From a virus (Duplodnaviria; Heunggongvirae; Uroviricota; Caudoviricetes): a stretch of 40,286 nt of DNA. The stretch's first letter is position 1, and the number at the start of each line of letters is the position of its first letter. The notes under the pieces are model-generated. The model was not told the origin of the DNA and did not search any database. It saw only the letters and a list, made by a program, of their open reading frames with translations. Location of the stretch: positions 1-40,286 of IMG/VR virus record IMGVR_UViG_2541047822_000001; one strand, given 5' to 3'. Below are positions 3,155 to 40,286 of this stretch, piece after piece. The position numbers were made by a program, and so were the translations under genes.

Positions 3155-3516
3155 TATGCTCCAGCCTCCGGTGCTTTTGGCATTACTGCCCAGTGAGTGA
3201 TATTGACGTTTTCAAGGTCCCCGACCTGAAATGTCCACTGCCATTCTCCGGTTTCTTTTTGTCCCCAGGTGTACCAGAGAGAACGCCAGCCAATTAGCCA
3301 GCCTTCTCCGTTAGCATCGAATAACAAAACACTTTCATTTGCTGGTGGCAGTTCAGTTGACACTGGTATTACTTTGTTTTCCTGTGCTGCACATTTAGCT
3401 TCAAGCGCATCGAATTTACGCACCAGGTATTCAGCATCTGTTTCATTCACTTTCAGATCTCGCGGTACACATCTCCCACGAAGAAACCCTTCCATTTCGA
3501 AAACATTCATGCGCAT
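3154..3516 (-). CDS. DUF551-like phage protein
   Basis: 120 aa; C-terminal W-rich region ...GEGWLIGWRSLWYTWGQKETGEWQWTFQVGDLENVNITHWAVMPKAPE resembles DUF551 (ends in THW.P.P). GGAG sits 9 nt before the ATG. Confidence 0.6.
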   Translation of the reverse strand: MRMNVFEMEGFLRGRCVPRDLKVNETDAEYLVRKFDALEAKCAAQENKVIPVSTELPPANESVLLFDANGEGWLIGWRSLWYTWGQKETGEWQWTFQVGDLENVNITHWAVMPKAPEAGA

Positions 3517-4043
3517 TTGCGTAACTCCGATAACTCGTTAAAACGTTCCATAAACATCCCGTAGGCATGGCCCGGTGCCTGTGGAATCACTTTGAACATC
3601 TCTGTTGCCGGGATACCTTCCAGTACAGGCCAGAAAGAGCCATCATCAAGCCCGAGATCGCGGCGTTCGGTTGCCAGCATAATGAGATCGGCATATTTCA
3701 CTGGCGTGCTCATAATAGGAGGTAACCCGTATTTCTCACGGATTACGGCGTCTATTTTTTCTTCCATCCGTTTATAGTCAGGAAGAAGTCGTTTCAGTGG
3801 TGCGGGGATGTCCTGGCAATATGCTTCTGTTGCATCATGCATTAAAGCTTCAAAAGCAAATTCCTGTGGCACCAGCTGGCTGCAAAGCACCGCATGTTGG
3901 GCGACACTGTAGAAGTGTGAAAGATGTCCTGCAAAGCGACAGATATTTGAAAGGGAAACCGCGATATCGTTAATAACGATGTCGTCTTTATTTATCCTGT
4001 CATAATAAAAATGCTTCCCGGAAAAAGTTTTAATAAATGACAT
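3507..4043 (-). CDS. HD-domain phosphohydrolase
   Basis: H...HD metal-binding motifs (FAGHLSHFYSVAQHAVL, LMHDATEAY). Track ORF starts at a GTG at 4070, but the ATG at 4043 has a GGAGA Shine-Dalgarno 7 nt upstream, so I take 4043. Confidence 0.8.
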   Translation of the reverse strand: MSFIKTFSGKHFYYDRINKDDIVINDIAVSLSNICRFAGHLSHFYSVAQHAVLCSQLVPQEFAFEALMHDATEAYCQDIPAPLKRLLPDYKRMEEKIDAVIREKYGLPPIMSTPVKYADLIMLATERRDLGLDDGSFWPVLEGIPATEMFKVIPQAPGHAYGMFMERFNELSELRKCA

Positions 4044-4140
4044 TTTGTTCTCCACGTATATGCGCTGCACCGCGCTGAATTCGGGTAAAAGGAAGCCCTC
4101 ACCGTCCGGCGATTATTGAGTCAATTACATTTCCATAAAT

Positions 4141-4372
4141 GCCCCCGTAGGGGCGGTTAGTTTCTCCACAAAACAGAGAAGAACACCTGCGGTGGCAGCC
4201 GCCCGGATGGATTGGGTTATGAGCCCGTCGTCCGGTGATGCTCTTCTCTGTTTTGTAAAAAGGACGGTACCAGCCGGAAGCAAAGGTACAAGCTGGTACC
4301 GCCAAGACTACACACAGCATAAAGTTGTGGTGCCGGGTGCCTCCCGGTGCCTGGCGAAGGTTGCACACCAGG
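4141..4372. other. GC-rich structured non-coding block (candidate RNA element)
   Basis: No protein-like ORF across 4071..4556. Perfect 15-bp inverted repeat ACAAAACAGAGAAGA (4168..4182) / TCTTCTCTGTTTTGT (4242..4256); hairpins GCCCC-CGTA-GGGGC (4141..4154), GGTACCAGC...GCTGGTACC (4266..4300), CCTGG...CCAGG (4350..4372). Strand and function unknown. Confidence 0.3.
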
Positions 4373-4556
4373 CGGGTGGGTATCCACAGAAGGTCGACTG
4401 TCAGCCTCAACCTTAACCCGCGTGCGCTGAGCCGCATTCACCACAACGCTAAGGATTCTCTCTGGTTGAAAATACTTAGCTGTTATGTGCCTGTCTTTTC
4501 ACCACTTCAGGCTCGGTGGTATCCTTTTAAGCCCGTATACATAAAAGGAAAATCAA

Positions 4557-4802
4557 ATGACTTTTGATGAAAAAGAACTTGATAATGCAATTAATAAAAT
4601 CATCGTAACGTCGCTCTTTTCCTGTCTCAGCGACACTCAGCAAAAACAGTTCTACGAATCGGCTTTCAACATGATCGAGCGTTGTTGTTTCTGCGATGCC
4701 GACGAGTTACCTGAAAAAATCAGGAAACAGTTGGCTGATGCTCTTCGAGTGCGACTTTCTGACCAATTTTCTGAAATGTACTCTTCGAATTTGGACAAAT
4801 AG
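4557..4802 (+). CDS. hypothetical small protein (81 aa)
   Basis: AAGGA Shine-Dalgarno 8 nt before ATG; helical-looking sequence. The 3' end overlaps convergent ORF 4720..4995 by 83 nt, so one of the two may be spurious. Confidence 0.4.
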   Translation: MTFDEKELDNAINKIIVTSLFSCLSDTQQKQFYESAFNMIERCCFCDADELPEKIRKQLADALRVRLSDQFSEMYSSNLDK

Positions 4803-4995
4803 AAAAAGGCCATTTCCATTCAGGGTCTGATGGAAAGACTTCAGCCTGTTCTAAAGCACGGCGTAAAGAGAACACAACTCCAGCCATAATCTGATGTTTC
4901 CCATTGGTCCAGCTATCGCCGCTCTGATCTACAGGAGCGGCTATGTCGTATGACCAAACGACTTCACCACTATTGTTTAAAATCTGGACTTTCAT
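4720..4995 (-). CDS. hypothetical small protein (91 aa)
   Basis: GGAGG 10 nt upstream of ATG at 4995; follows the upstream gene on the same strand after a 9-nt gap. The C-terminal third overlaps 4557..4802. Confidence 0.45.
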   Translation of the reverse strand: MKVQILNNSGEVVWSYDIAAPVDQSGDSWTNGKHQIMAGVVFSLRRALEQAEVFPSDPEWKWPFSICPNSKSTFQKIGQKVALEEHQPTVS

Positions 4996-13718: not shown

Positions 13719-13768
13719 TTTCCTAACGATGGGCTTTGTATGTCTGCCGTTAACGAAATCATAACAAA

Positions 13769-13789
13769 CCTCGCTTCGGCGGGGTTTTT
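13769..13789 (+). terminator. intrinsic terminator (tR'-like)
   Basis: CCTCGC-TTCG-GCGGGG hairpin (one G-U pair, UUCG tetraloop) followed by TTTTT. Confidence 0.55.
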
Positions 13790-14130
13790 GCTTTTCTGGA
13801 GGGTAAGAAAATGCACCAGTAAACGGATAGACCGCAGCCGATAGGCAAATCCGCAGTCGTGATGCGGTCCCGAGTCTCCATGAGAGCCAGATGCAGGTAC
13901 GAACTGCAACACACACTGGTTAGGGTTAATAAAGAAGAGGTGTGCCGGTACTCCAGAACGATCGCCAATCGTTCTCCGGTTAGAGGTGAGGGATTCATGA
14001 GATACCCCTGACTACGGTCTCAAAGGCATGAGCGCGGCCACTGCGAGAGTGTGGTAAGCAACAGAATAGTAATTCACAGGCCCCTTATGTAAATGCTATA
14101 AAAGCGGACTATTGAAAAGGAGAGTTCGCT

Positions 14131-14772
14131 ATGTCAAAAACCTTTGAGCAAATGAAACTTAATTTTATTTATTTGCACGAATTATGGTTGTTAACTCATT
14201 CGATAAAAACACGCTGTGAAGAGCTCTTTCATGAGACACCACTTCCTGATGCTGGTTACTACTTTAAAATTGATTACAATATTCATATATTAATAAATAG
14301 CATTCTTTCAGATGCGGCTAACGTCAAGAAACTAATCGCAGTTCCTAAAAATAAGACTAGGGAAGAATCCCCTGAACAATTCAGATTGCATATTGAGCGA
14401 AGTAATTACCTTCAACAAAAAATAAAAGATATTGAAATTAAGGAAATTAATTCCGTGAGGGTGAGAAACACCTTGCAACACTTCGATGAGTATTTAGATC
14501 AGCTAAACATTGATGTTACAGCAGGGAAGATGAAAGGTCATGGTATTGCAGTTTATAATTTTGTGATCTCCCACTGGAAGGCAATCAACCCTAGGCCATA
14601 TCCGATAAGGTTATATGTTTGTGAGGAAAAAACATACTATAATATGAAGGCGTCAATTAACTTAGAAAAAGTTTACAATGAGGCTTTTCAGGTTAATGAG
14701 GTAATCCGTAAAGAAATAAATAAAGAAGCTGGTGCAGAGCCTGGTAGCTTTATGGTTCCTTTAAACTTTTAA
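14131..14772 (+). CDS. AT-rich moron protein, unknown function (213 aa; possible HEPN-like R-x4-H motif)
   Basis: AAGGAG Shine-Dalgarno; strongly AT-rich; sits between Q and the holin where lambdoid phages carry cargo; own terminator immediately downstream. Contains RNTLQH, an R-x4-H pattern. Confidence 0.75.
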   Translation: MSKTFEQMKLNFIYLHELWLLTHSIKTRCEELFHETPLPDAGYYFKIDYNIHILINSILSDAANVKKLIAVPKNKTREESPEQFRLHIERSNYLQQKIKDIEIKEINSVRVRNTLQHFDEYLDQLNIDVTAGKMKGHGIAVYNFVISHWKAINPRPYPIRLYVCEEKTYYNMKASINLEKVYNEAFQVNEVIRKEINKEAGAEPGSFMVPLNF

Positions 14773-14792
14773 ACTTTATAATTCTATTAACT

Positions 14793-14816
14793 GCCCCGTA
14801 ATAGCGGGGCTTTTTT
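14793..14816 (+). terminator. rho-independent terminator of the moron
   Basis: GCCCCG-TAATAG-CGGGGC hairpin followed by TTTTTT, 20 nt after the stop codon. Confidence 0.8.
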
Positions 14817-14932
14817 ATTTCAGGATCACGGGAATCATCCGTTACGTGCTTTGTTGATATATCCAGCCCGTGAAGCCTGAGCCTATTTCCCCTCATACCT
14901 GAGAGGACTCACAGCAATTAAGAGGGGGCTAA

Positions 14933-15319
14933 ATGTCCGATCCGATTTCCGGTACTGGGCTGGCTGGTGGTGCCCTGACGGGTGCCAGTGTTTATGGACT
15001 GCTGACCGGAACTGATTACGGCGTTGTATTTGGCGCATTTGCAGGGGCTGTATTCTACATAGCAACAGCAGCAGATCTGAGTGCATCGCGCCGACTGGCA
15101 TATTTTATCGTGTCATATATTGCCGGGATTCTTTGCTCTGGGTTGGTTGGCTCCAAGCTGGCGAACTTGACCGGATACAGTGATAAACCTCTGGATGCTA
15201 TTGGTGCCGTAATCGTCTCTGCTTTAGCCGTTAAAATCCTGACGTTCCTGAATAATCAGGATATCGGCTCGCTGGTGGCGCTCATAACGCGCCGGGGAGG
15301 TTCAGGTGGAGCTAAATGA
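14933..15319 (+). CDS. putative holin
   Basis: 128-aa Gly/Ala-rich membrane protein with 2–3 predicted transmembrane segments, first gene of the lysis cluster. Confidence 0.6.
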   Translation: MSDPISGTGLAGGALTGASVYGLLTGTDYGVVFGAFAGAVFYIATAADLSASRRLAYFIVSYIAGILCSGLVGSKLANLTGYSDKPLDAIGAVIVSALAVKILTFLNNQDIGSLVALITRRGGSGGAK

Positions 15320-15587
15320 CCCGACAGCAACTATAAATGCGCTGTTATGTGCTTGTGTTGTTATTACTCTGATGTTTTATCGTCGTGGTGATTCGCGGCA
15401 TCGTCCTTGGGTTTCACGTTTAGCCTGGCTGATTACTGTTACATACAGTGCTGTTCCGTTGGCCTATCTCTGTGGGATTTATCCCCATTCCTCATGGCCC
15501 ATTATCGTGGCGAACACTATTTTTCTTTCCGTGCTGGTGGCCGTCAGAGGCAACGTTGCACGTCTGATTGATCATCTGAGGCACTAA
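15306..15587 (+). CDS. putative holin/antiholin-like membrane protein
   Basis: 93 aa with hydrophobic segments; GTG start with GGAGG Shine-Dalgarno; overlaps the preceding gene and abuts the endolysin. Confidence 0.55.
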   Translation: MELNDPTATINALLCACVVITLMFYRRGDSRHRPWVSRLAWLITVTYSAVPLAYLCGIYPHSSWPIIVANTIFLSVLVAVRGNVARLIDHLRH

Positions 15588-16201
15588 TGAACCAACAATT
15601 ATTTCAAAAGGCGGCTGGTATTAGCGCCGAACTGGCTGCGCGCTGGTTTCCGCATATTGATGCGGCGATGAAGGAATTCGGCATTACAGCACCAGCGGAT
15701 CAGGCAATGTTTATCGCTCAGATAGGCCATGAGTCGATGGGGTTTAGCGCCGTAGTTGAAAATTTTAACTACACACCATCTGCGCTGGTGGCGACGTTCG
15801 GAAAGAGGATCACACAGCAGCAGGCTGATGCCCTTGGCAGAACATCCGGACATGCAGCTCGTCAGGATGCTATTGCCAATCTGGTGTATAGCAACCGACT
15901 GGGTAACAAAGCACCAGGTGATGGCTGGAAATATCGTGGTAGAGGATTAATTCAAATCACAGGCCTCCATAATTATCGCATCTGTGGCGCGGCGCTGAAG
16001 TTAGATCTGGTGACTTCACCTGAACAACTGGAACAGGAACTACAGGCGGCGCGCTCAGCTGCATGGTTCTACACCTCTAAAGGCTGCATGATCTACGGTG
16101 CCGATATTAACCGTGTTACGCGCATTATTAACGGCGGTCTGAACGGTATTGAGGATCGTAAGGTCCGATACAACAGGGCGCGGGCGGTGCTGCTGGTATG
16201 A
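15587..16201 (+). CDS. endolysin (GH19 chitinase-like lysozyme)
   Basis: Motifs QIGHESMGF ... GRGLIQITG..NY typical of GH19-type phage endolysins; TAATG overlap with the upstream gene. Confidence 0.85.
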   Translation: MNQQLFQKAAGISAELAARWFPHIDAAMKEFGITAPADQAMFIAQIGHESMGFSAVVENFNYTPSALVATFGKRITQQQADALGRTSGHAARQDAIANLVYSNRLGNKAPGDGWKYRGRGLIQITGLHNYRICGAALKLDLVTSPEQLEQELQAARSAAWFYTSKGCMIYGADINRVTRIINGGLNGIEDRKVRYNRARAVLLV

Positions 16202-16590
16202 AGATAAGTTATTTGGCGCTCATTTTAACGTTTATTGCTTGTGTTGCTGGTGGTCTTGTCTGGTCAGCGAATCACTATTATGGAAAGTTTCTGGAGGAGC
16301 AGAAGCGTGCTGACGCTGCGGAACAGCGAGCTGATTCTACTGAGGCTATCACCGAGAATGTTCTGCGTACTATGGCAATAACGAACATCATTCAGGAGGC
16401 GAATCAACATGCAAAACAGCAGATCGCACTGGAGTCACAGAGAACCCAGGAAGATATCAAAGTGGCTATTGCGAATGATGATTGCGCTTCACGTCCTGTG
16501 CCTGCTACCGCTGCTGACCGGTTGCGGAAGTACGCGGACAGTTTACGTGAATACACCGGCGGTACTACTGCCAACCAGCCTGACTTCTGA
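16198..16590 (+). CDS. i-spanin (Rz-like)
   Basis: N-terminal signal-anchor (MKISYLALILTFIACVAGGLVW) followed by a charged helical periplasmic domain; ATGA overlap with the endolysin stop. Confidence 0.75.
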   Translation: MKISYLALILTFIACVAGGLVWSANHYYGKFLEEQKRADAAEQRADSTEAITENVLRTMAITNIIQEANQHAKQQIALESQRTQEDIKVAIANDDCASRPVPATAADRLRKYADSLREYTGGTTANQPDF

Positions 16591-34633: not shown

Positions 34634-35242
34634 ATGCATCGTATAGACACGAAAACCGCGCAGAAGGATAAGTTCGGCGCGGGTAAGAACGGTTTTACCC
34701 GTGGTAACCCCCAGACCGGCACGCCTGCCACCGATCTGGATGATGACTACTTTGACATGTTGCAGGAGGAGCTTTGCAGCGTTGTGGAGGCATCCGGTGC
34801 CAGCCTGGAGAAGGGGCGGCACGACCAGTTGCTTACCGCGCTTCGTGCGCTGCTGTTAAGCCGCAAGAATCCGTTTGGTGATATCAAATCGGATGGCACG
34901 GTGAAAACGGCTCTCGAAAACCTTGGTTTGGGAGAAGCGGCAAAACGGAATGTGGGAACAGGGGAAAATCAGATACCTAGTATGTCAGAATGGACATCTG
35001 GGACAGGATGGAATAGAGACCCGTCGGGGAGAATAATACAGCGGGGATTTGCTATGACATCAAGTCAAACTAACATTTTATTCCCGATACCATTTCCGTA
35101 TGACGATTTCGAAGTTATCGTTTGTGCAGCAGATACAGGAGCAAATAAAGGGGCCGTAAATGTGTTGCGAAAATCGAGGCAGGGGTTTTCTGTTTCACAG
35201 GTTGGAAGTATGCCAGTCGCATACAGATGGATAGCGGGGTGA
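34634..35242 (+). CDS. tail fibre protein (constant N-terminus plus currently expressed variable C-terminus)
   Basis: Conserved N-terminus [47 protein letters not shown]...; composition turns AT-rich after the crossover site at ~34917..34937, marking the variable part. Confidence 0.8.
34917..34937. repeat. left crossover site of the invertible segment (gix/hix-like)
   Basis: GAAAACCTTGGTTTGGGAGAAG; the 15-mer TTGGTTTGGGAGAAG (34923..34937) recurs inverted at 36705..36719. Resembles remembered Hin/Gin sites with an AAACC..GGTTT core. Confidence 0.6.
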
Positions 35243-36259: not shown

Positions 36260-36759
36260 TATGCAGCCCTCACGATATAATTAAAGGCAATGTTTCGAGG
36301 CCTGTTCTCACTTGCCGTTGGAACGGAATTAGAAGCATTAAAAGTCACCTGTTTGGCAAATCCCGTTCCGGCGCTATCTCCTGATGCTGAACCAAGATTA
36401 ACCATTTTGAATGCCCCGTTTGCTGCCGCAGAAGGGTTGAACCTCACATCTGTAATGGCACCATTAATATTGCGAATTGCATCTCCTTGTGACGAAAGCA
36501 AGATACGGTTAGTATCTATTCCTCTTCCGTCATCCCAGCCGCGAATAAACTCACCACGTAAATCAGGCAATTTATTTGTCGGATAAGCCTTTGCCAGTTC
36601 CGGGTATTCTTCAGCAGAAAAAGCTGCACCGTTGCATTTCAGCCAGCCTGTCGGCGGAGTGGCGGAAGGCCATGGAACAGGGACACCAACAGGTAATGCC
36701 GAACCTTCTCCCAAACCAACGTTTATGAAAATGCAGAAATAACGAGCAAAAGGCATCAT
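36259..36759 (-). CDS. alternative tail fibre variable C-terminal segment (needs inversion to be expressed)
   Basis: Minus-strand frame encodes a tail-collar-like domain (WLKCNGAAFSAEEYPELAKAYP...LPDLRGEFIRGWDDGRGID); its 5' end carries the inverted crossover site and has no promoter or conserved N-terminus of its own. Confidence 0.7.
   Translation of the reverse strand: MMPFARYFCIFINVGLGEGSALPVGVPVPWPSATPPTGWLKCNGAAFSAEEYPELAKAYPTNKLPDLRGEFIRGWDDGRGIDTNRILLSSQGDAIRNINGAITDVRFNPSAAANGAFKMVNLGSASGDSAGTGFAKQVTFNASNSVPTASENRPRNIAFNYIVRAA
36705..36725. repeat. right crossover site of the invertible segment
   Basis: CTTCTCCCAAACCAACGTTTATG on the + strand is the reverse complement of the left site (perfect 15-mer plus partly matching flank), about 60 bp upstream of the invertase start. 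Confidence 0.6.
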
Positions 36760-36785
36760 TCCTGCTTTTGTCAGGGGGAGCTACC

Positions 36786-36914
36786 ATGCTTATTGGCTAT
36801 GTACGCGTATCAACAAATGACCAGAACACCGATCTACAACGTAATGCGTTGAGCTGTGCAGGATGCGAGCTGATTTTTGAAGACAAGATAAGCGGTACAA
36901 AGTCCGAAACCTAG
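36786..36914 (+). pseudogene. DNA invertase (Gin/Pin/Hin serine recombinase), truncated after 42 codons
   Basis: MLIGYVRVSTNDQNTDLQRNALSCAGCELIFEDKISGTKSET then stop. This is the invertase N-terminus, including the catalytic-Ser region (VRVST), but the remaining ~140 codons are absent; an unrelated AT-rich sequence follows. Confidence 0.8.
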
Positions 36915-36962
36915 GGCTGACACTGCTGTTCTTGTTGCAAATTAAAGGATTTAATAGTGAGT

Positions 36963-36988
36963 AGCGGCCTTACTAATGTAAGGCCGCT
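36963..36988. terminator. hairpin downstream of the GmrSD-like gene
   Basis: Perfect 10-bp stem AGCGGCCTTA / TAAGGCCGCT with loop CTAATG, 22 bp beyond the minus-strand gene's stop; T-rich on the plus side (ATAATCATTTTATT). Confidence 0.45.
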
Positions 36989-37009
36989 ATAATCATTTTA
37001 TTAATTGCA

Positions 37010-38899
37010 TTAATCGTGTTTTGGCCATACTTTCAATGCAATTTCCCCCAACTTTTTACCCCGCTCCAGGATTTCATCCTCATCCCATTTATCCTTAACT
37101 ATAAGTGGAATGTTCAGTCGTAGATTGGTGTGGACGATGAGAGCATCACGTTTTTTCAGAAATACAGCATTCTGAACAGAACGGTTTACGCTAAGGTTAA
37201 GCAAAGTTAGATTTCCCAACGTAGCTATCGCTTGTTGCCGTTTCCTTACCAGTAGCTGCTCAGGGGTAAGATCTGTTCCAGACAGAACAATTTGGTTCAA
37301 TACCGTTGCATCTGAATTTGTCACCATATGACCATTTTCGAGAGGCCAACAGGAATACCAACTTTGAGGCATAAGATGATCGATATCGAGATTGGAAAGA
37401 TTTGGAACATCAGGCTTCTCTGTCTTCACTTGGCGACAAAGTTCTCTTTCAAGTTCCGTTAACATTGAGCGCATTTTCGGTGCGTCGAGCCTGCCAGGAT
37501 AAAGTGGAGCATTGATGCAAGCATTGAGAAATTCTGAGTCACCAGGCCAACGTGAGGCTTCGCCATTTAAGCTATTGAGGATATTACGTAACTCAACACT
37601 GGAAATTTCCGTTTTAGACAAGTGCCGCAATACATTCATAAATACATTGTTGTAATTCTTTGGCGTCAGGCCACATACGGCTCTTCGTACTACGTAGGAG
37701 ACAAGATCATTATACATGGCTGCTTTCTCATCATCGGCGATGTTAGCTATCGAAATGAACAAAGCAAGCGGATAAAGTGTCGTCACATCATAGGCTGCGA
37801 TGCGATGTCCAAAGTGTGAGATGGGGGTTGTGCCAAAACCACCAACCAATTCTTTATATTGTGATGCATATTGTTTGAGGCGCTTTACTTGCAGATCAGC
37901 TCGTTGTGAAGGCAAGTCCTTACTTACATAATCACGATACTCATTGTAAAGACGAGACAGATCAATTTCACGTTGCCTTTCTGATTGCAATGTCGCATGC
38001 ACTAGCCACTCCATGCGTGGTTTATTAATACGTCCACGGCGTTGCCTTTCCGACCAGTATGTATCTTCAAAGCTCTTCCACTCATTTTCATATAATTCAA
38101 TAGCATTAATATTTTCATGCTCAGCGCACATAAAGATGTAGTTGCGAATAAGATCCGTGGCATGAAGTTCCGCCCCTCGGCCATTTAATGTTTCAAAAAT
38201 TATTTGGGCATCATCTTCAGCTTCGAGAAATATGCTTACCAGTTTCAGATCCGTCAAGACAGCCTCAATTAGTGCTACAGCATTTTCATGTGGTGAGTAC
38301 TTTTCTATTTTAATCCATTTTATAAAGGCTTCAGTAAAAAACCATAATGCCTCTAGTGACGGCGGGTGGTTGAAATGTTTACGTAACGTACCATGTTGCG
38401 TGAAGCTATCAGAAAATACATCACGGAGATCGTCAATGTTTTCAACGTTAAAACTTTGAATAAAATGAGTTTGGTCTCGAAAAGTTGGCCACAGTTTGAA
38501 GCATTCTACCTTTTTATTTCGCATAGTTGCTTCGTTTGTATTTTTCAAGCAAGTCAATACTAACCCTTCCAAATCAGAAAGGCCTGTAGCACGCAATGAT
38601 AATCGAATGGATGCCAGAATATATTGAAGAGTGGTTAAACGTTGCTGGCCGTCAATAATATGTATGGTATCTACACCTAACAAGCTGTTTTTGAGTTGAG
38701 GTTCCAGCACCACCGCGCCAAGGAAATGGGGAGTTGGTTTTGTTCCCAAAAGTCGGCTATGTGCTTTTTCGAAGATATCCTCCAGCAAAGCTGACCATTG
38801 GTTTTGTTGCGTCCATACGTAGGCACGTTGATAGAATGGAACACGATATTGTCGTTGATTTTGGAAAAGTTGCTGGATGGTTAGCGTTTCGGATTTCAT
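37010..38899 (-). CDS. GmrSD-family nuclease (DUF262 ParB-like N-domain + DUF1524 His-Me C-domain), likely type IV restriction enzyme
   Basis: 629 aa; N-terminal ...QRQYRVPFYQRAYVWTQQNQW... (DUF262 signature, IDGQQR downstream) and C-terminal ...LSNLDIDHLMPQSW...LGNLTLLNLSVNRS... (DUF1524 signature). Markedly AT-rich; lies between the truncated invertase and IS5. Confidence 0.85.
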   Translation of the reverse strand: MKSETLTIQQLFQNQRQYRVPFYQRAYVWTQQNQWSALLEDIFEKAHSRLLGTKPTPHFLGAVVLEPQLKNSLLGVDTIHIIDGQQRLTTLQYILASIRLSLRATGLSDLEGLVLTCLKNTNEATMRNKKVECFKLWPTFRDQTHFIQSFNVENIDDLRDVFSDSFTQHGTLRKHFNHPPSLEALWFFTEAFIKWIKIEKYSPHENAVALIEAVLTDLKLVSIFLEAEDDAQIIFETLNGRGAELHATDLIRNYIFMCAEHENINAIELYENEWKSFEDTYWSERQRRGRINKPRMEWLVHATLQSERQREIDLSRLYNEYRDYVSKDLPSQRADLQVKRLKQYASQYKELVGGFGTTPISHFGHRIAAYDVTTLYPLALFISIANIADDEKAAMYNDLVSYVVRRAVCGLTPKNYNNVFMNVLRHLSKTEISSVELRNILNSLNGEASRWPGDSEFLNACINAPLYPGRLDAPKMRSMLTELERELCRQVKTEKPDVPNLSNLDIDHLMPQSWYSCWPLENGHMVTNSDATVLNQIVLSGTDLTPEQLLVRKRQQAIATLGNLTLLNLSVNRSVQNAVFLKKRDALIVHTNLRLNIPLIVKDKWDEDEILERGKKLGEIALKVWPKHD

Positions 38900-39237
38900 T
38901 GTTTACCTATAAGTGACATTCCACAAGAGTAAGAAATTCATCTGAGTCAGAATAATCATTTTTATGTAGTCATGATACAGTGTATTTGTTGCTGGTGAAG
39001 TAAAAACGAGAAATCCCGCTTTTGAATGCTGACGTGCTACGGCTTCATTGGATATTCTCTTTTGTCTGTTCTCCATTGCGTCGGTGTTTTGTCGAGATTG
39101 TTAGCACATTGTTTCTGCTGTTTTTTTATCCAAGCGCTGCTAAATCATTGTAGATGGCACTATCGGGTATTGAAGCTGCAGACATGTCGTATACAATAGT
39201 CAGCTACGGCTGGCTGGTGAATTTCCGATAGTGCTAG

Positions 39238-40286
<1,049 letters not shown>

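Follow-up and report, generated by a model that had tools for sequence, protein, structure and literature searches.

Near one end of a stretch of viral DNA of 40,286 nucleotides (the window: IMG/VR record IMGVR_UViG_2541047822_000001), the gene for a tail-fibre invertase is broken, and a DUF262/DUF1524 gene and an IS5 element follow it. This raises the questions of what the gene is, how it came to lie there, and whether IS5 took part. The segment is very probably the well-known prophage-borne Type IV gene gmrSD, in an old cassette that replaced the invertase, with IS5 as a later arrival.

37010–38899, minus strand: gmrSD, a 629-aa open reading frame for a single-chain Type IV (modification-dependent) restriction endonuclease.

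As the original prediction had stated, there is one 629-aa DUF262/DUF1524 gene on the strand opposite to the invertase, and the proposed GmrSD-type modification-dependent nuclease is borne out by the domain matches and intact motifs. Pfam searches with the 629-aa protein show GmrSD_N (DUF262) at residues 8–256 (E-value = 6.1e-34) and GmrSD_C (DUF1524) at residues 451–619 (E-value = 4.4e-20). The PADLOC model mREase_IV covers residues 1–629 of 629 at 1479 bits. The N-terminal region displays the sequence IIDGQQRLTTL, with DGQQR at residue 83; (I/V)(I/V)DGQQRLTT is the defining DUF262 (GmrS, ParB/Srx-like) motif of GmrSD (PMC4619093). The C-terminal DUF1524 (GmrD) region has a His-Me finger of the (E/D)-H...N...N type (DIDHLMPQ), with D507, H508, C517, N522, N528 and N535 retained; seven cysteines are kept. 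In Eco94GmrSD the mutants D507A, H508A and N522A are inactive (PMC4437046), and mutations of C517, N528 and N535 lower GmrSD activity (PMC4437046, PMC4619093). Loss of catalytic residues had been named as evidence against the assignment; on alignment none is missing from either domain. The DUF262 motif, the DUF1524 residues and the close kinship to an enzyme of demonstrated activity place the protein in the GmrSD family.

Sequences of characterised GmrSD proteins for comparison were those of Fig. S1 of PMC4437046. Eco94GmrSD (E. coli STEC_94C, WP_000834395) and EcoCT596GmrSD, the founding Type IV glc-hmC-dependent enzymes, are 629 aa long like the window protein, which is identical to both at 609 of 629 positions (96.8%) without gaps. 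They share DGQQR, D507-H508-N522-N528-N535 and the seven cysteines, and in all of them the gene comes directly after the tail-fibre genes, on an SfII-like prophage. Unlike the Eco94 and CT596 copies, the window gene has an IS5 element 338 bp upstream. The possibility of a divergent GmrSD subtype is not upheld at this level of identity. By these alignments the window carries an allele almost identical to the founding GmrSD, whose biochemistry has been characterised; the gene is already known and ordinary.

The 20 differences from Eco94 (window residue first) are L11I, Q32R, H47Q, L51S, D109E, F150L, E153D, D160N, K200N, Y201H, H204Q, S276I, T280K, R285K, R316H, A407S, L534M, V601L, D608S and H628Y. 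Position 280 (K in Eco94, T in the window) is within the ExEx4ExK motif, which was flagged by the authors of the Eco94/CT596 work (PMC4437046). Eight of these positions (H47, L51, D109, K200, Y201, H204, T280 and R285) differ from the UTI89 protein as well, and the three substitutions clustered at 200–204 are confined to the allele group of the window.

GmrSD of UTI89 (UTI89_C2960) has 590 of 629 residues identical to the window protein (93.8%), and the two open reading frames are of equal length and without frameshifts. The dN/dS ratio between the two alleles is 0.15. The N-terminal 210 codons are mosaic, with a far higher divergence (dS 0.61) than the remainder (dS 0.07). In this variable N-terminal third dN/dS is 0.13 and positive selection was not found; thus the region displays mosaicism only.

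Other proteins with the two-domain DUF262/DUF1524 layout are BrxU and SspE. SspE models of PADLOC match only residues ~7–106 of the window protein, at 52 bits or less. An identity with BrxU or SspE was rejected: their matches are far weaker than those of GmrSD, and the BREX (brxA-L, pglX/Z) or sspABCD partners are absent nearby. The neighbours of gmrSD are tail-fibre genes, the invertase remnant, IS5 and an open reading frame of unknown function. An NCBIfam search of the 629-aa protein gave no family match, and a PDB sequence search yielded distant DUF262 proteins only (9jfl, E-value = 5.6e-7) and no structure of a close relative. In a tblastn search of 50,697 deposited phage genomes no close GmrSD was found, the top match being 24.7% identical; the gene is thus known from prophages and not from the isolated phages of that set.

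36786–36931, plus strand: remnant of a Pin-family serine DNA invertase gene, nt 1–147 of 555, with TAG at 36912–36914.

34918–34937: left crossover-site repeat of the invertible tail-fibre segment (AAACCTTGGTTTGGGAGAAG), inside the tail-fibre open reading frame 34634–35242.

36705–36724: right crossover-site repeat of this segment, a 20-nt inverted repeat 95% complementary to 34918–34937.

The invertase frame begins with ATG at 36786 and ends at the TAG after 42 codons, as had been predicted along with the loss of most of the invertase. The stub matches positions 2–48 of 145 of the Pfam Resolvase model (E-value = 4e-9). As far as about position 36931 its DNA shares 92%–94% identity with the intact pinE of APEC 102026 and with the vB_EcoM-689R6 phage invertase; beyond this the sequence is unrelated to intact invertases, and the homology thus outruns the stop codon by about 20 nt. 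The stop at codon 43 stems from a 1-nt deletion in the remnant, and alleles without the deletion read to 61 codons. The YVRVS serine region is retained, with nothing past residue ~49, and the complete catalytic domain and C-terminal helix-turn-helix of a Pin/Gin/Cin/Hin invertase (about 184 aa) are missing. Between the two repeats, tail-fibre assembly genes converge and an alternative tip for the fibre is encoded (Caudo_TAP and Collar domains). The repeats are the substrate of the lost invertase and, since the stub is non-functional, inversion of the tail-fibre segment depends on another invertase working in trans.

36932–39179: gmrSD cassette, 2,248 bp with a single gene, GC 0.409.

36961–36990: GC-rich hairpin where the pin stub and gmrSD converge, with a perfect stem of 12–13 bp and a loop of 4.

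38900–39237, minus strand: gmrSD upstream region, 338 bp, intact; its last 58 bp (39180–39237) are conserved prophage flank.

The proposed comparison with a prophage that keeps its invertase gives the limits of the insertion, which replaces most of pinE. Homology to an intact-pinE prophage (L006) breaks at 36931 and restarts at 39180; the cassette occupies the place of the last 408 nt of pinE and of a PD-T4-3 defence gene. The conserved right flank is marked by the sequence GCTACGACTGGCTGGTGAACTTCCGATAGTGC. The predicted switch to an AT-rich segment after the stub was found: the cassette has a GC content of 0.409, whereas the window as a whole has 0.51 and its structural genes 0.554. The GC content is already lower (0.468) in the invertible tail-fibre segment, so that the switch at 36914, though genuine, is a small one.

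As RNA the hairpin is predicted to fold at -27.1 kcal/mol (z = -6.8), a value that none of 200 shuffled sequences matched, and it is conserved in the copies of JNEC-KY203 and UTI89. It is likely a terminator. The idea that it is gmrSD's own holds in that a strong hairpin is present, but the plus strand offers a better T-rich tail than does the gmrSD strand. The upstream region is 98.7% identical, up to 39237, to that of the IS-free JNEC-KY203. It contains a weak promoter-like site at 38999–38972 with a 9/12 match, nine such sites being found against 6.3 expected.

The window matches E. coli chromosomes, in which the prophage spans from tRNA-Thr (1369–1444) to a 48-bp att repeat past IS5. The element that carries gmrSD is a myovirus prophage of the e14/SfII-like kind, with the tRNA gene thrW as its integration site. 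The closest genome has a frameshift in the large terminase gene. The gene is not at the very end of the prophage, as first thought: in the two closest genomes a further open reading frame and attR follow IS5. The location of gmrSD on SfII-like prophages beside tail-fibre assembly and invertase genes was already published in 2015 (PMC4437046, PMC4619093), and PMC4619093 cites the original CT596 report for this neighbourhood.

In a set of 5,426 complete E. coli genomes, gmrSD occurs in 306 and the pin stub/gmrSD junction in 303. A copy of the gene beside an intact invertase, which would point to an ancestral gene and not an insertion, was looked for in the same genomes and not found. UTI89 has the same stub with the 1-nt deletion and TAG, the same hairpin and the same junction, but its prophage is at ssrA, unlike the window prophage at thrW. 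With the junction common to 303 genomes and to two attachment sites, the replacement is old and inherited, not local. Thus the proposed insertion of gmrSD with loss of the invertase stands as regards the cassette, but not as an event in this genome; it travels with the prophage module. A low-GC cassette of 2.25 kb replaced the last three quarters of the invertase gene and the DNA behind it once, long ago. Whether gmrSD replaced PD-T4-3 or the reverse is read solely from the truncation of the invertase.

39238–40286, plus strand: IS5 (ISKpn26-family), the first 1,049 of 1,195 bp, starting GGAAGGTGCGAACAAG and continuing past the end of the window.

39306–40286, plus strand: IS5 transposase open reading frame (Pfam DDE_Tnp_1, E-value = 4.5e-35, and DUF772), transcribed away from gmrSD.

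The IS5 element does follow gmrSD, as had been noted, but it is not the boundary of the cargo: the cassette ends at about 39179 and IS5 lies 58 bp further, in conserved flank. A genome of 100% identity has the full 1,195-bp copy with its terminal repeats. The element is flanked there by CTAG and ATAA, so that a 4-bp target-site duplication is absent, and 352 bp of the IS-free strain PT62 are missing at the site. Together these indicate that IS5 did not simply insert, but that adjacent DNA was deleted as well. IS5 is at this locus in only two complete E. coli genomes; strains 22AR0750 and E371 have it, and PT62 and JNEC-KY203 lack it. It came later in the lineage of the window, as a separate event 338 bp upstream of gmrSD, and its arrival deleted the 352 bp, including the start of the adjoining unknown open reading frame, leaving gmrSD and its upstream region untouched. 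The 300-aa open reading frame past IS5 has no Pfam or PADLOC match and one PHROG match, of unknown function.

Enzymes near-identical to the window allele cleave T4 and T4gt DNA with stimulation by ATP, restrict T4 lacking ip1 about 10^6-fold, and are inhibited by IPI* (PMC4437046). NTP-stimulated cleavage of hmC and glc-hmC DNA, with restriction of T-even phages, has been shown for Eco94 and CT596 only (PMC4437046). By analogy with these two, the N-terminal DUF262 (ParB/Srx-like, DGQQR) domain would use NTP, and the DUF1524 His-Me finger (D507-H508-N522) would cut DNA with 5-hydroxymethylcytosine or glucosyl-hmC. The window allele is thus predicted to be a modification-dependent nuclease against hmC/glc-hmC phage DNA, and it would shield a lysogen against T-even phages, except those that inject an inhibitor such as T4 IPI*. 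In vitro the enzyme of UTI89, which is 93% identical to Eco94, was inactive on all substrates; it does not restrict T4 and is reported to be IPI*-immune, whereas restriction of other T-even phages in vivo is reported for the UTI89 strain (PMC4437046). Since the UTI89 enzyme is inactive in vitro and does not restrict T4 despite its closeness, the specificity and the IPI* sensitivity of the window allele cannot be read from its sequence.

An alternative is a GmrSD allele with altered or lost activity, one that, like the UTI89 enzyme, does not restrict T4-type phages, that targets another modification, or that is decaying while carried along by a defective prophage. The 20 substitutions including K280T, three of them unique to the allele group at 200–204, are in keeping with this, as are the UTI89 results, the mosaic N-terminal third and the frameshifted terminase gene of the closest genome. 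A decayed gene is however difficult to reconcile with a full-length open reading frame that has all tested catalytic residues and low dN/dS values, both overall and in the variable third. The exact protein is present on 134 contigs, the T280 group is intact in several unrelated strains, and for the UTI89 strain, restriction of other T-even phages in vivo is reported. This alternative appears rather unlikely.

Two other explanations concern the rearrangement itself, and both are highly improbable. One is that IS5 delivered or mobilised gmrSD as cargo, in a transposon-like insertion that truncated the invertase; in its favour, IS5 adjoins the cassette at 39238. About 300 genomes, however, have the identical junction and upstream region without IS5, against two complete genomes with it, and these IS-free relatives refute IS5 as the carrier. 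There is also one IS copy only, with none on the invertase side; it lies outside the cassette, and it is associated with a deletion and not with a target duplication. The other explanation, no more credible, is an aberrant inversion that split the invertase and carried its 3′ part past gmrSD in reverse orientation, without any DNA being lost. The broken gene is indeed an invertase with cargo on the opposite strand, and the PD-T4-3 homologue has opposite orientations in UTI89 and APEC 102026. In tblastn searches with full-length PinE, however, the 3′ part was not found in 3.3–10.7 kb beyond the stub at six loci; the matches are limited to PinE residues 1–44 to 1–61 (window, JNEC-KY203, 22AR0750, UTI89, PT62), and the inversion model is thus unsupported. 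An old cassette replacement, followed by IS5, is the preferred reading.

The place behind the invertase is occupied by other nucleases in related elements. In phage vB_EcoM-689R6 and at the pinE-mcrA end of the e14-type prophage (pinE-mcrA being the gene order of e14 in K-12), the late region ends with the tail-fibre invertase followed immediately by a Type IV modification-dependent nuclease, as at the gmrSD locus. Unlike that locus, the invertase is intact, and the nuclease is McrA (HNH, 5mC/hmC-specific), on the same strand and unrelated in sequence. In APEC 102026 the anti-T4 defence gene PD-T4-3 (GIY-YIG, LEM-3-like) is in the slot of gmrSD between matching flanks, with the 5′ end of pin to the left and the conserved sequence to the right; its nuclease fold is other than that of GmrSD, and pinE is complete. 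A 281-aa open reading frame behind another truncated invertase has no Pfam or PADLOC match. An uncatalogued site of exchange for the anti-phage nucleases GmrSD, McrA and PD-T4-3 may thus lie behind the invertase of e14/SfII-like prophages, with the invertase sometimes lost in the exchange. The allele group, with its 20 differences and mosaic N-terminal third, may differ from the CT/Eco94 and UT enzymes in phage range or IPI*-type sensitivity. Both of these suggestions are tentative.

Little of this is new, GmrSD being a textbook Type IV enzyme against glucosyl-hmC phages with a published prophage neighbourhood. Useful additions are the exact bounds of the cassette, the broken invertase shared by the gmrSD copies of complete E. 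coli genomes (303 with the junction against 306 with the gene), and the presence of McrA or PD-T4-3 in the slot of relatives. In practice, the locus may help in predicting the susceptibility of E. coli strains to T-even phages, e.g. for phage therapy, and the slot behind the invertase may be mined for more defence genes.

Bases 36600-39400 of the window are 100% identical to E. coli strains 22AR0750 and E371; over the 23 kb at its right-hand end, identity to 22AR0750 is 99.86%. The window is E. coli chromosome and carries a ~40-kb prophage of the e14/SfII-like myovirus type. The prophage end in 22AR0750, which lies outside the window, is a 48-bp exact repeat of the 3′ end of the tRNA-Thr gene. 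The features concerned are as follows, and include the whole layout of the original prediction, from the 42-codon invertase frame to IS5. The invertible tail-fibre segment and what follows it occupy the distal end of the late region.

1369-1444, tRNA-Thr, proA side; the prophage start adjoins it
34918-34937 and 36705-36724, 20-nt inverted repeats bordering the invertible tail-fibre segment
36786-36914, + strand, 42-codon open reading frame matching the first 48 positions of Pfam Resolvase
36961-36990, hairpin with a perfect 12-13-bp stem (z = -6.8)
37010-38899, - strand, gmrSD, 629-aa open reading frame with GmrSD_N/DUF262 (6e-34) and GmrSD_C/DUF1524 (4e-20)
between gmrSD and IS5, 338 bp of non-coding DNA
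39238 to the window end, IS5

In 22AR0750 the prophage and a vat (vacuolating autotransporter) island stand in tandem at thrW (L003, the 22AR0750 locus, 1-2521, outside the window). Beyond attR come a partial integrase, a MarR regulator and a frameshifted vat. The two otherwise near-identical prophages differ at window positions 13754-16395, from the antiterminator gene to the lysis genes. In 22AR0750 this stretch encodes a 406-aa ATP-binding protein. In the window it contains a 213-aa open reading frame (14131-14772), for which Pfam, PADLOC and PHROG gave no match, and the lysis genes also differ, comprising two families of holin and a Glyco_hydro_19-like endolysin.

The PADLOC mREase_IV model covers the gmrSD product end to end (1479 bits), which pointed to a catalogued enzyme. 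Eco94GmrSD is a 629-aa protein with catalytic residues D507-H508-N522 (PMC4437046). The reference sequences of Eco94GmrSD, CT596GmrSD and UTI89GmrSD were taken from the supplement of that paper and compared residue by residue in an ungapped alignment. The window protein is identical to Eco94GmrSD and to CT596GmrSD at 609/629 positions each (96.8%), and to the UTI89 enzyme at 590/629 (93.8%). The GmrSD-type assignment was thus correct, and the identity to characterised enzymes rules out a divergent subtype. The motif DGQQR (83-87), residues D507, H508, N522, N528 and N535, and all seven cysteines are conserved, so that the catalytic DUF262/DUF1524 residues, whose loss would have spoken against the assignment, are all kept; the protein also fits the motifs as Machnicka et al. 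define them (PMC4619093). The exact protein occurs on 134 contigs in public databases, and its 90%-identity cluster has 1,185 members. The window gene represents a third group of alleles of the founding GmrSD. With a dN/dS of 0.15 against the UTI89 allele, it is under purifying selection.

By analogy with these near-identical enzymes, the C-terminal His-Me finger would cut hmC and glucosyl-hmC DNA in an NTP-stimulated, Mg-dependent reaction, T4 lacking ip1 would be restricted ~10^6-fold, and the injected T4 protein IPI* would inhibit the enzyme. Expression is plausible because the upstream region is retained; the sole promoter-like match there is weak. DNA upstream of gmrSD in UTI89 (L007, 8496-8713) has a frameshifted DinI-like pseudogene. 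The window's own upstream stretch, 38900-39237, reaches just 71% identity to the neighbouring UTI89 sequence and shows no evident DinI frame.

Window GmrSD differs from Eco94GmrSD at 20 sites, including a cluster at 200-204 and K280T, which lies within a motif flagged by the Eco94GmrSD authors (PMC4437046). Against the UTI89 allele, dS is 0.61 in codons 1-210 and 0.07 in codons 211-629, yet dN/dS is about 0.13-0.15 in both parts and no excess of amino acid changes was found in the first 210 codons. The alleles are therefore mosaic, a pattern which suggests that old alleles have recombined within the DUF262 part. The UTI89 enzyme departs from the CT596 and Eco94 enzymes both in the phages it restricts and in its response to IPI*, and it was inactive in vitro (PMC4437046), so exactly which phages the window allele would restrict is not predictable.

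The invertase stub was aligned with the intact invertases of phage vB_EcoM-689R6 (L005) and APEC 102026 (pinE; L006). Homology ends at ~36931, nt 147 of 555, its final ~20 nt being degraded, and L006 homology restarts at 39180. This comparison with an intact-invertase prophage places the cassette at 36932-39179 (2,248 bp, one gene), and most of the invertase has been lost to the GmrSD-type gene, as had been proposed. Inversion was considered as the origin and rejected: no 3′ part of the invertase was found nearby, in the 3.3-10.7 kb past the stub at each of six loci, and the event was therefore a replacement. The TAG at codon 43 arises from a 1-nt deletion; in JNEC-KY203 and PT62, which do not have it, the stub reads to 61 codons. 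As the stub lacks the DNA-binding domain and most of the catalytic domain, the tail-fibre segment would stay locked in the absence of another Pin-family invertase acting in trans. The cassette is AT-rich, as predicted (GC 0.409 versus 0.51 for the window), but this real shift is gradual, the invertible segment being already at 0.468.

At the megablast level gmrSD is found in 306 of 5,426 complete E. coli genomes, in every case on the chromosome, and 303 have the stub-hairpin-gmrSD junction; none was found to carry the gene beside an intact invertase, an arrangement that would have indicated an ancestral position. Stub, 1-nt deletion and hairpin are all shared by the UTI89 copy, although its prophage adjoins ssrA, not thrW. 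The truncation thus occurred once, and recombination later carried the stub-plus-gmrSD module from prophage to prophage. The proposed insertion at the prophage end in the window lineage is accordingly replaced by inheritance of the module. The gmrSD neighbourhood has already been noted in the published record, a known enzyme in a known context.

IS5 is found at this spot only in 22AR0750 and E371, the two genomes 100% identical to the window here. The full copy (1,195 bp) is flanked by CTAG (left) and ATAA (right), with no 4-bp target duplication. In PT62 (L008), where the flanks show 98.7% identity or more, the place of IS5 is taken by 352 bp that contain the first codons of a 300-aa open reading frame diverging from gmrSD. 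IS5 thus came in late, and its insertion was accompanied by a deletion alongside. It is 58 bp away from the cassette edge and, on the upstream side, 338 bp away from the gmrSD start. Contrary to what had been supposed, it does not bound the cargo; it does not explain the cargo either and is incidental to it. Nor is gmrSD the last prophage gene in the closest genomes. The 300-aa frame stands between gmrSD and attR, beyond the window (PT62, 3429-4331; comparison locus L002, 11864-12664). Neither Pfam nor PADLOC matches it, and its sole match is to a PHROG of unknown function (30874). In the window lineage IS5 took away the first 24 codons, and in JNEC-KY203 just a fragment of the frame is left. 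The frame may be another piece of prophage cargo.

In vB_EcoM-611R5 (L004, ON470588.1 5001-6165) the invertase is truncated differently, to 105 aa, and is followed by an opposite-strand 281-aa open reading frame of unknown function. The equivalent interval in APEC 102026 (NZ_CP087290.1) is 1,438 bp and holds the remainder of pinE and an opposite-strand GIY-YIG protein, PD-T4-3 (4112-4885; PADLOC 2.4e-140), and in vB_EcoM-689R6 (ON470584.1 684-1517) McrA follows an intact invertase. A parallel is e14 in K-12, which has pinE and mcrA at its end. Because related elements carry PD-T4-3 or McrA in this slot, the position behind the tail-fibre invertase looks like an exchange place for anti-phage nucleases.
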